The position numbers and the translations under genes are program-made. The notes under the pieces were generated by a model, which searched no databases, was not told the DNA's origin, and was given only the letters and a program-made list of their open reading frames with translations. A DNA stretch of 64,000 bases. It comes from Malacoraja senta (taxonomy: Eukaryota). The DNA lies in contig CM075995.1 of assembly GCA_038087875.1 (NCBI GenBank), positions 1,056,001 to 1,120,000 on the forward strand, in the 5' to 3' direction. This document shows, piece after piece, positions 43,037 to 64,000 of the stretch (positions are counted from its first letter, which is position 1; every line of letters starts with the position of its first letter).

Positions 43037-43191
43037 GCACATGCACAGCTGGTTCGTGAGATTGATGTAGAAAAGGTGACAATCTTGGAAAACCCTTACG
43101 TGGATGCAATAAAATGTTTATGGGTGGACCCAGGCATCCAGGAATCCTATGACCGAAGGAGAGAGTACCAGTTGTCGGATTCTACTAAATA
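43037..43191 (+). CDS. GNAQ: G protein alpha-q, coding exon 3 (155 bp)
   Basis: Acceptor ttctctacag| and donor TA|gtaagt. Translates [51 protein letters not shown](Y), matching vertebrate Gq exon 3; [17 protein letters not shown] and SDSTKY point to GNAQ rather than GNA11/14. Length and phase 0/2 fit the known gene structure. Confidence 0.95.
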
Positions 43192-61270: not shown

Positions 61271-61496
61271 CAGCTCAATGGCTCAGATACAATGATGTTC
61301 TGAAAATGGAACAAAAATAATGCATCCCCTCAGCATCAGAGCCAAGAGAGATAGGCTCATTAATTTTAAGAGAAATTTTAATATATCTGCTTTAATTTTT
61401 GCTGAATCTTTTCATAATTTGCTTTCCATAAATAAATCGAGGCACTCCATTAGAGGAGCCGATGCATTATATTTAATTTTCTTTCTTATTTCACAG

Positions 61497-61625
61497 CTAC
61501 CTTAGTGATACTGATCGTATTGCAGCACCTGATTATCTGCCAACTCAACAGGATGTGCTGCGTGTTCGAGTGCCCACAACTGGCATCATTGAGTATCCAT
61601 TTGATCTGGAGAATATAATCCTCAG
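61497..61625 (+). CDS. GNAQ: GNAQ exon 4, upstream alternative copy (4a, G-alpha-11/14-like; 129 bp)
   Basis: Pyrimidine tract and tttcacag| acceptor, AG|gtactg donor, phase 2/2. Open frame [42 protein letters not shown](R); the FDLENII end is typical of G11/G14. Confidence 0.85.
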
Positions 61626-62103
61626 GTACTGATTGGGGCCTGTTGTAAATTTCCTAGGTGCAGATGTTGTGTCTTCCCAGTATTTTCTGGTTTAACATAA
61701 TGACATAAAGTACCACTCAGTTACTCGCATCACTAAATAACTACTGCAACATATCAGAGGCAAAATGCAAAACATTATTGCTTAGTGATTGATATGCATT
61801 GTGTAATTTTAGCCTACAATGTTAAATTTTTTTTTTTAGAATTGATAATGTTCACTAGATCTATATTACAAAATACTGGGAAAATGCACTCTGCGTTCTT
61901 GGGAAAATGGCACAATCTGGTGAGGAAGAGACTTGAATGAAAATAACTGTCCAATGTTACCACCTTAAATAAATTGCCTCAACTCACTAGGACTCCTGTA
62001 GGCAGGGAGAATGGTGATCACCGCCCCATTCTATTTTCCTCACCCTGTTTTCCTTTTCCAATGTCACAGTCTTTGCATTCCTGTTGTTTCTTCCTGTCTG
62101 TAG

Positions 62104-62232
62104 CTATCTTAAAGACTTGGACCGTATATCAGAACCTACCTATCTACCCACTCAACAAGATGTGCTTAGAGTGCGAGTCCCAACAACAGGGATCATTGAA
62201 TACCCTTTCGACTTGCAAACCGTCATTTTCAG
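62104..62232 (+). CDS. GNAQ: GNAQ exon 4, canonical copy (4b, G-alpha-q-like; 129 bp)
   Basis: Long pyrimidine tract and ctgtag| acceptor, AG|gtagaa donor, phase 2/2. Translates [42 protein letters not shown](R), like Gq YLNDLDR...FDLQSVIFR; contains switch I R183/T186 equivalents. Confidence 0.93.
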
Positions 62233-62244
62233 GTAGAAGAAAGT

Positions 62245-62710
62245 TGCTAAACGGTACTAACAGTTTTGGCAATTTGGGCTAAAAGCTTCCATTTTCTAGA
62301 ACTTATTTATTATGCACATTGAGTTTTAAATTTGTAAAATTGTTAGAAATTATTGTTAGAAAATTGTTTAAAATGACAAGTGCATGTTTCATAAATTAAT
62401 ATTTTTAATGTTTTAAAATGATTATGTTACACAGGTTTTTAAATGCTGTTTGTCATATTTAAAGTTACCATGTGATCTGAAATGATAGTTTAATCTTCAG
62501 TGATTTTCTATGAAACATAAATGATTTCGCATTTCAACATGTTATCAGTTGAAGAGCAAGAAATTACTCAAATGTACATCAATTATTTTCTGCCTAATCA
62601 ATAACTGAATTTGATTTTTTGTCCCCCCCCACTGAGTTGTTTCAGTAATACCATGAATATTAGGTTTTGCATGCGAAATTGACTTTTCTATACCTCCCTT
62701 ATTTTGCATG
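62245..62710 (+). promoter_or_regulatory. Candidate intronic splicing-regulatory cluster (QKI/SF1 and RBFOX motifs)
   Basis: TACTAAC at 62255-62261 and TGCATG at 62381, 62668 and 62705, all within 480 nt downstream of exon 4b. Confidence 0.5.
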
Positions 62711-62816: not shown

Positions 62817-63641
62817 CAGTGCCCTCCATAATGTTTGGGACAAAGACCCATCATTTATTTATTTGCCTCTGTACACCACAATTTGAAATTTGTAATAGAA
62901 AAAATCACATGTGTTTAAAGTGCACATTGTCAGATTTTAATAAAGGCCATTTTTATACATTTTAGAAATTACAGCAGTGTTTATACATAGTCCCTCCATT
63001 TCAGGGCACCATCATGTTTGGGACACATGGCTTCACAGGTGTTTGTAAGTGCTCAGGTGTGTTTAAATGCCTCCTTAATGCAGGTATAAGAGAGCTCTCA
63101 GCACCTAGTCTTTCCTCCAGTCTTTCCGTCACCTTTGAAAACTTTTATTGCTGTTTATCAACATGAGGACCAAAGTTGTGCCAATGAAAGTCAAAGAAGC
63201 CATTATGAGACTGAGAGACAAGAATAAAACTGTTAGAGACATCAGCTAAACCTTAGGCTTAACATAATCAACTGTTCGGAACATCATTAAGAAGAAAGAG
63301 AGCACTGGTGAGCTTACTAATCGCAAAGGGGCTGGCAGGCCAAGGAAGACCTCCACAGCTGATGATGACAGAAGAATTCTCTCTATAATAAAGAAAATCC
63401 CCAAACACCTGTCCGACAGATCAGAAACACTCTGCAGGAGTCGGGTGTGGATTTGTCAATGACCACTGTCCACAGAAGACTTCATGAACAGAAATACAGA
63501 GGCAACACTGGCAAGATGCAAACCACTGGTTATCCCCAAAAATAGGATGGCCAGGTTACAGTTTGCCAAGAAGTACTTAAAAGAGCAACCACGGTTATGG
63601 AAAAAGGTCTTGTGGACAGATGAGATGAAGATTAACTTATA
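62817..63641 (+). mobile_element. Tc1 transposon, second copy, left half, interrupted by CR1
   Basis: TA|cagtgccctccataatgtttgggaca TIR; homologous to 53883-54682. Confidence 0.93.
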
Positions 63642-64000
63642 TGAAGGCATGAGAGGGGAGCTGGCCAAAGTAGACTGGAAAGGGATCCCAGCAGGAATGA
63701 CGGTGGAACAGCAATGGGAGGAATTTCTAGGCATAATCCGGGAGACGCAGGATCATTTCATTCCAAAAATTAAGAAAGATTATAAGGGGAGTAGGAGGCA
63801 ACCGTGGCTGACAAGAGAAGTTAGGGATAGAATAAAACTAAAAGAAAAGATGTACAACACAGCAAAGAGTAGCCAGAAGCCAGAGGATTGGGAAACTTTC
63901 AACAGAAGGAAACAAAACGGGCAATACGGGCTGAAAAGATGAAGTACGAGGGGAAGCTGGCCAGGAATATAAAAAAGGACAGTAAAAGCTTCTTTAGATA
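63642..64000 (+). mobile_element. CR1 LINE inserted into Tc1, runs off the window
   Basis: MRGELAKVDW..QPWLTREVRD homologous to 57270-57635. Confidence 0.9.

Follow-up and report, generated by a model that had tools for sequence, protein, structure and literature searches.

An ancient tandem pair of fourth exons in the GNAQ gene of the skate Malacoraja senta

Introduction

The G-alpha-q gene (GNAQ) of the skate Malacoraja senta carries two consecutive copies of exon 4 within a 64,000-nucleotide stretch of DNA (the window; C19:1056001-1120000 of a 1.94-Gb genome). This raises the question of whether one locus can make two G-alpha-q isoforms and, if so, how old the arrangement is, what it changes in the protein and what governs the choice between the copies.

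A pair of this kind has been described before. Lokits et al. 2018 (PMC5896119) reported exons 4.1 and 4.2 in the GNAQ genes of gar and coelacanth and in the GNA11 genes of gar, coelacanth and teleosts, proposed either-or splicing as well as an effect of the exon swap on partner interfaces, and dated the duplication to a time before 2R separated GNAQ from GNA11. The skate pair corresponds to this system in gene, exon, tandem arrangement and proposed either-or inclusion, so that the caution attached to the original prediction, which was made from the sequence alone and allowed that an alternative exon 4 might have been noted before, was well placed: both the exon pair and an origin before 2R are published there. 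The available portion of that text names no elasmobranch, and the ghostshark was sampled yet is unlisted for the pair. Its exon tree left out tetrapods, and the same portion of text is silent on which copy tetrapods retained, a point that its Fig. S6 may show. In the vertebrate exon 4 literature, judged from listings and mostly without subscription papers, this was the sole relevant paper that we found; retention of opposite copies by tetrapod GNAQ and GNA11 was not found stated in a search of that literature that most subscription papers fell outside.

Results

The exon pair and its host gene

The arrangement within the window is as follows.

43037..43191, plus strand: GNAQ exon 3, 155 nt, constitutive, the upstream partner for both exon 4 copies
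61497..61625, plus strand: exon 4a, the upstream copy, E197-N198 type, in which L replaces the conserved F201; the minor form in relatives
61626..62103, plus strand: intron separating 4a and 4b, 478 nt, GT-AG, in which AG occurs 20 times; longer than steric exclusion would allow
62104..62232, plus strand: exon 4b, the downstream copy, Q197-T198 type, its peptide equal to copy 2 of Rhinoraja GNAQ; the major form in relatives

Both copies are 129 nt long, are preceded by AG and followed by GT, and share one open phase. They are identical at 90 of 129 nucleotides and different at the other 39, and their peptides differ at 9 of 42 residues (Gq positions 162, 164, 168, 169, 171, 197, 198, 199 and 201, numbered by aligning the exon to 6vu5, a match covering Gq residues 160-201). 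Within the shared core of 25 codons, 16 codons differ and 16/16 of these differences are synonymous; between the copies as a whole, synonymous sites are saturated (pS 0.77) against a pN of 0.146 (Fisher p 1.6e-10), and the 300-nt flanks of 4a and 4b align no better than shuffles. The exon length, phase, spacing, 16 synonymous core codons and nine residue differences of the original prediction were all reproduced. Its further proposal, that the duplication is old and both copies are under purifying selection, is borne out by the saturated synonymous sites, the low pN and the DNA tree described below, and a recent exon duplication is ruled out by the pS/pN contrast, the unrelated flanks and the same tree. 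These observations confirm an intact exon 4 pair in GNAQ, well beyond chance.

The assignment of the host gene to GNAQ also held up. The exon 3 peptide matches mammalian GNAQ at 44/51 positions, versus 37-39/51 for GNA11, and Rhinoraja GNAQ at 50/51, while exon 6 matches GNAQ at 50/51 and GNA11 at 47-49/51; moreover, a GNA14-like exon 1 lies 44 kb beyond GNAQ exon 7 on the same strand, in head-to-tail order. Together, the matches of exons 3 and 6 and the downstream GNA14 rule out a GNA11 gene on a small chromosome. GNAQ exons 5-7 are found further along C19, which thus holds exons 3-7 together with GNA14 exon 1; the remaining exons, 1-2 of GNAQ and 2-7 of GNA14, lie on C1, on either side of a 200-N gap (140301611-140301810). 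Because the assembly really does split GNAQ between C1 and C19, we considered whether the pair might itself be an assembly artefact, or one copy belong to another gene. The probability of this appears negligible, as the pair sits inside a 457-kb gap-free stretch (C19:884950-1342424, with gaps at 884750 and 1342425), the copies are separated by those 39 nucleotide differences, two sequencing runs, one of which may be the source of the assembly, contain 1.00 and 0.98 of the sampled words from 61400-62400, and the tandem order is likewise annotated in 10 other elasmobranchs, a repetition of exon order across species that already refutes an artefact. The split of GNAQ and GNA14 over C1 and C19 is probably a misplaced contig.

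Elsewhere in this genome, one G-alpha exon gave an identical score at C4:11476762 and on a small contig (C5660:42605), which is probably a haplotype duplicate. Repeated searches of the same genome did not find GNA11 or GNA15 exons, though another skate has a GNA11-like gene; these exons are probably absent from the assembly or were overlooked by the search.

Age and fate of the two exon types

The two copies had been predicted to be of G11/G14 type (4a) and Gq type (4b). For 4b this is clearly so, with scores of 71.6 bits on Gq versus 60.2 on G11 structures. For 4a, however, a G11-specific identity did not stand, since it scores 65.9 bits on G11 and 65.6 on Gq; its peptide matches invertebrate single-copy Gq exons at 36-37/42 positions and turtle GNA11 at 38/42, and GNA14 also carries EN. 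The near-equal scores, together with the matches to invertebrate single-copy exons, mark 4a as ancestral-like rather than G11-specific.

Ten named shark and ray species have both copies in their NCBI models, the skate 4a peptide being 41/42 identical to the 4a of stingray and of sawfish, and both are also found in models of gar GNAQ and of gar, coelacanth and teleost GNA11. Among 62 two-copy vertebrate-type proteins that were parsed, 53 have EN in the upstream and QS or QT in the downstream copy, and the other nine are variants, one with QS twice. In a Silurus gna11a model (P0142) the two copies are identical and of Q type, through annotation error or gene conversion.

Of 80 loci obtained from a metagenome scan, two (L097 and L144) are two-exon fish loci, GNA11-like as inferred from their peptides. 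Out of 129 nucleotides, skate 4a shares 105 with the upstream copy of L097 and 90 with that of L144, and 4b shares 105 and 102 with the respective downstream copies, while comparisons across types gave 85-92. Identical codons made up 74/138 in same-type and 50/134 in cross-type comparisons (p 0.008, for three loci and non-independent pairs), although 4a and the L144 upstream copy, with 13/34, were no higher than cross-type. A DNA tree of 13 rows grouped the 4b of the window with the downstream copies of teleost GNA11 (95/92), rejected a clade of the window's 4a and 4b (p-AU 0.00036) and did not place a single teleost GNAQ-like exon (L078) within the downstream-copy group. The copies thus group by exon type across both genes, as expected of a duplication predating the GNAQ/GNA11 split. 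A protein tree of 46 rows, which left out arthropod and Gi rows, agrees but is weak (downstream group 85/77; a GNAQ-only clade not rejected, p-AU 0.068).

We then considered the genes with one copy. When 109 proteins were assigned to a gene from exons 2-3 only, 20 were GNAQ with QS, none GNAQ with EN, 62 GNA11 with EN (many of them redundant human variants) and 12, all from teleosts, GNA11 with QS, the remaining 15 being uncalled or without a parsable exon. Mammalian GNAQ exon 4 matches the downstream copy of gar GNAQ at 41/42 positions and the upstream copy at 33, and tetrapod GNA11 exon 4 has 36-39 matches to upstream versus 32-36 to downstream copies. At the protein level, tetrapod GNAQ is therefore of 4b type and tetrapod GNA11 of 4a type. 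The suggestion that mammalian GNAQ and GNA11 each kept a different member of the pair accordingly agrees with both data sets in tetrapods, and since gene calls from exons 2-3 and the gar/tetrapod matches point the same way, reciprocal retention (4b in GNAQ, 4a in GNA11) is a well-supported reading of these sequences. Tandem exon duplicates divided between daughter genes after gene duplication have been described for CACNA1F/CACNA1S and for the FYN family (Martinez-Gomez et al. 2022, PMC9741552), and GNAQ/GNA11 resembles those cases in that each daughter gene keeps a different ancestral exon. GNAQ/GNA11 has no occurrence in the main text of that paper and is not mentioned in the available portion of PMC8373072.

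Three proteins from sharks and skates to which NCBI gives the name GNAQ (P0238, P0324 and P0332) look like GNA11 orthologues with a Q-type exon 4, and use of the Q-type exon would explain the GNAQ label of such orthologues in databases. No second exon 4 copy was found in one GNA11-like locus over the 5.5 kb searched. We also considered whether elasmobranchs had lost GNA11 and replaced it by splicing; this is ruled out by GNA11-like proteins in Chiloscyllium, Carcharodon/Heterodontus and Rhinoraja.

Arthropod G-alpha-q also has a duplicated exon at this position, with copies that are swapped, and a 43-residue double-inclusion variant is known (PMC4553527, in the portion available). Unlike the skate pair, the arthropod pair has different residue types, with changes inside the core. 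The spacing differs as well: in 4/5 invertebrate two-copy Gq loci (L106, L111, L118 and the exon pair of L121) the copies are 47-51 nt apart, at which steric exclusion is feasible, and in the fifth (L132) 149 nt, whereas the inter-copy intron of fishes measures 478-1001 nt. The arthropod exon duplication is probably independent of the vertebrate one. GNAO1, with its duplicated last two exons, is like GNAQ a G-alpha gene with ancient exon-swap isoforms, but the GNAO1 pair is terminal and affects the receptor-binding C-terminal part, whereas the GNAQ pair is internal, around switch I. In the skate genome the last two G-alpha exons gave two matches each at C2:182376446-182397037, as expected for the duplicated terminal exons of GNAO.

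What the exon changes in the protein

The two copies had been proposed to form a switch over switch I. They do not, because the stretch with R183 and T186, which we take to lie within switch I, is part of the core that is identical in 4a and 4b, and the differences, confined to residues 162-171 and 197-201, flank it. The claim that the exon carries receptor-facing residues fared better: as given in the available portion of the H1R-Gq structure paper, V199 and F201 are among the residues of the pocket that receives the receptor's ICL2 (PMC8027608), and two of the sites that differ between 4a and 4b (199 and 201) belong to this pocket. Since V199 and F201 help to form it, altered receptor coupling is plausible, and the 4a and 4b isoforms may differ in this respect. 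Both isoforms would fold as known G-alpha-q.

Use of the two copies in relatives

No run recorded as RNA was listed as containing the stretch, and the contig runs used here are RNA by our guess. Four of 24 listed runs were mapped over 4a to exon 6, three of them informative. Run X4 has a contig in which 4b, exon 5 and exon 6 follow one another with no intron between them (depth 7.1), and a separate contig that spans 4a (3.74). In X6, two 181-nt contigs hold one exon each behind the same 27-letter lead, at depths of 14.1 (4a) and 37.1 (4b). The lead plus 3 shared first letters makes 30, as do 25 letters plus 5 shared last letters, and because overlaps of 30 letters are expected in a 31-mer graph, the two contigs would, judging by their coordinates, represent alternative paths from exon 3 to exon 5. 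In X1 the depths are 2.4 (4a) and 75.2 (4b). All of these are relatives, with 1-3 differences per exon in X4 and X6, and depth is a poor measure. Exon 4a is thus the minor form in 3/3 informative runs, with a 4a:4b ratio that varies between runs of different organisms. A raw run (X24, 6 in 100 reads sampled) was swamped by repeats, with a depth of at most 0.61 on exon bins. Read depth was also very high over the part of the window from about 62830 to 64000, which marks it as repetitive; by eye, we take this part to be a Tc1/mariner-like remnant followed by LINE-like sequence.

That one locus can make two isoforms therefore agrees with these data, each copy being present in single-exon form in the probable-RNA contigs of relatives (X4, X6). 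The same contigs speak for the mutually exclusive switch that had been proposed, which need not be strict: joint inclusion of 4a and 4b keeps the frame, without a stop, and is annotated. Models of 402 residues with both exons are common, among them an NP_ record for zebrafish gna11a and isoform J of D. melanogaster, in a search that ranks doubled proteins first. No 4a-4b joint was found among the 15 joints listed (301 more lay outside that list, and contigs drop rare forms).

These both-exon models, which recur across many species and include curated-style records, could also mean that 4a is a cassette ahead of 4b, whose inclusion yields a probably misfolded 402-residue product and so lowers active Gq with no second isoform being made. 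The preserved frame would allow this, and a both-exon Anopheles variant has been cloned and judged premature (PMC4553527, same portion). We nevertheless think it very unlikely that 4a acts in this way. The X6 contigs, with their equal length and offset, fit two single-exon paths, unbroken at any 4a-4b branch; an exon that served only to dampen Gq would have no need of a flawlessly preserved catalytic core; and the 4a type is the sole exon 4 of tetrapod GNA11. The both-exon records fit a leaky choice between two alternative exons.

The minor copy may be under weaker constraint. At position 61621 the window has C where relatives have T, giving F201L in exon 4a; position 201 is F in 315/317 stored exon copies and L in none. 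A plain consensus error is argued against by run X18, which contains all sampled words of the stretch. When the window was compared with 14 elasmobranch proteins at the 34 positions that both copies otherwise share, changes were seen in 4a in four lineages (F201L in the window, Y160H in Rhinoraja, P170T in Scyliorhinus, and P170S, P174S and R181Q in Narcine) and in 4b in none. Judged from these sequences, weaker constraint on 4a, or early decay, is possible. In its stronger form this reading would have skates and electric rays losing 4a, with low-level splicing and relaxed selection moving it toward the state of teleost and tetrapod GNAQ, from which this copy is gone. The four changed lineages, an L that none of the 317 stored copies shares and the minor status of 4a in all three informative runs lean towards such a loss, but the counts are small and one change belongs to a shark. 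Moreover, 4a is open, has intact splice sites, keeps its 41/42 identity to the 4a of stingray and sawfish, and has a core with 0 replacements against 16 synonymous changes. We therefore regard ongoing loss as rather unlikely, and treat 4a as a minor exon in use.

Splice signals and the basis of exon choice

Four elements around the pair were compared with other loci.

61626..61631, plus strand: 4a donor GTACTG; the same hexamer follows the upstream copy of L097 and the single exon of L096 (both GNA11-like), and L144 has GTACCC
62081..62103, plus strand: 4b pyrimidine tract and acceptor; the best intron match to L097 (score 32, reached by 2/200 shuffles), with none to L144
62233..62238, plus strand: 4b donor GTAGAA; identical in L097 and L144, while the single-exon teleost GNAQ-like L078 and L079 have GTGAGA
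62256..62261, plus strand: ACTAAC, 24 nt past 4b; also 28 nt past the L097 downstream exon and absent from the first 100 nt of L144, a mere lead

The donors are thus conserved by exon type across genes. ACTAAC is presumably a QKI-type motif. Three TGCATG hexamers, which we take to be RBFOX-type motifs, lie at 62381, 62668 and 62705, within 480 nt past 4b.

Several simple means of exclusion were rejected. Frame shift and NMD would not operate, as 129 and 258 nt are both divisible by 3 and the junction codon is no stop. Steric exclusion is at odds with a 478-nt intron containing 20 AGs, the nearest upstream AG being 36 nt before the end of the 4b acceptor. A U2/U12 mismatch is likewise discounted, because the donors GTAAGT, GTACTG and GTAGAA lack the U12 consensus, as we take that consensus to be.

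Another candidate is RNA structure. One 8-mer is present both beside the donor of 4a, at 61639-61646, and within the pyrimidine tract of 4b, at 62080-62087, and either occurrence can pair with 62183-62190 inside exon 4b, so that competing pairings, together with hairpins that bury the donors, might enforce exclusion. The inverted repeat (I9) is present, a helix is predicted over the 4a donor (p 0.93) and, at spans of 150-300 but not of 600, another over the 4b tract (p 0.87-0.95), intron folding gave a z of -2.62, and across 10 exons 84% of the cells of the donor hairpin were paired, with two-sided change in 2 pairs. On rerunning, however, the intron z was -1.9, with 1/28 control windows reaching -2.5; L097 has no predicted tract-exon helix; the skate donor hairpin is no stabler than synonymous shuffles (p 0.22 and 0.45) and occurs in single-exon genes too; and the structure was derived from the very sequences used to judge it. 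An RNA-structure switch in the skate is not supported beyond chance, and we consider exclusion by competing pairings distinctly improbable. As a separate observation, an exon 4 donor hairpin (exon positions 104-116 with 123-135 of the A2 alignment) is possible in most Gq-family exons, single-copy ones included, and exceeds synonymous shuffles in L097a, L144a and L078, though not in the skate.

We favour regulated competition read by splicing factors, because weak donors are conserved over both genes, synonymous codons near the end of 4b are conserved as well and the tract is partly conserved.

Discussion

The pair in skate GNAQ is real and ancient, and as a gene and kind of arrangement it is largely known; its either-or use is probably leaky. 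What is new is the lineage (sharks and rays), the split of the copies in tetrapods and the conservation of splice signals. We judge it likely that skate GNAQ holds the ancient vertebrate GNAQ/GNA11 exon 4.1/4.2 pair, with leaky either-or use that gives two isoforms and with a later split in tetrapods. Exon 4 would have duplicated in tandem before GNAQ and GNA11 parted. The mRNA would normally take one copy, exon 3-4b-5 as the major and exon 3-4a-5 as the minor form, giving two G-alpha-q proteins of 359 residues that share the GTP-contacting core and differ in flanking residues, including 199 and, in the skate, 201, which line the pocket for receptor ICL2. The choice would be a regulated competition, involving two weak donors, both conserved, and cis-elements specific to each exon type that splicing factors recognise; frame, the length of the intron and the minor spliceosome would not decide it. 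It would be leaky enough to allow some in-frame double inclusion. The isoforms might differ modestly in receptor coupling, and tetrapods would later have retained 4b in GNAQ and 4a in GNA11.

A bolder version, which we offer tentatively and think somewhat less likely to be right than wrong, is that the Gq/G11 difference in this exon predates both genes, having begun as a splice switch under regulation, with a conserved code of its own (weak donors specific to each type, synonymous codons and the pyrimidine tract), that tunes the ICL2 pocket and hence receptor preference by tissue; sharks and rays would retain this switch in GNAQ, tetrapods would have fixed it through retention of 4b in GNAQ and 4a in GNA11, and skates may be losing 4a.

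With these findings, an exon pair already in the literature is documented in sharks and rays too, consistent with an origin that precedes the divergence of jawed vertebrates. Human G-alpha-q and G-alpha-11 are usually regarded as near-redundant, and each apparently uses the exon of an ancient splice pair that the other does not. The two-copy genes of fishes are natural chimeras for asking whether residues 160-201 alone alter receptor coupling.
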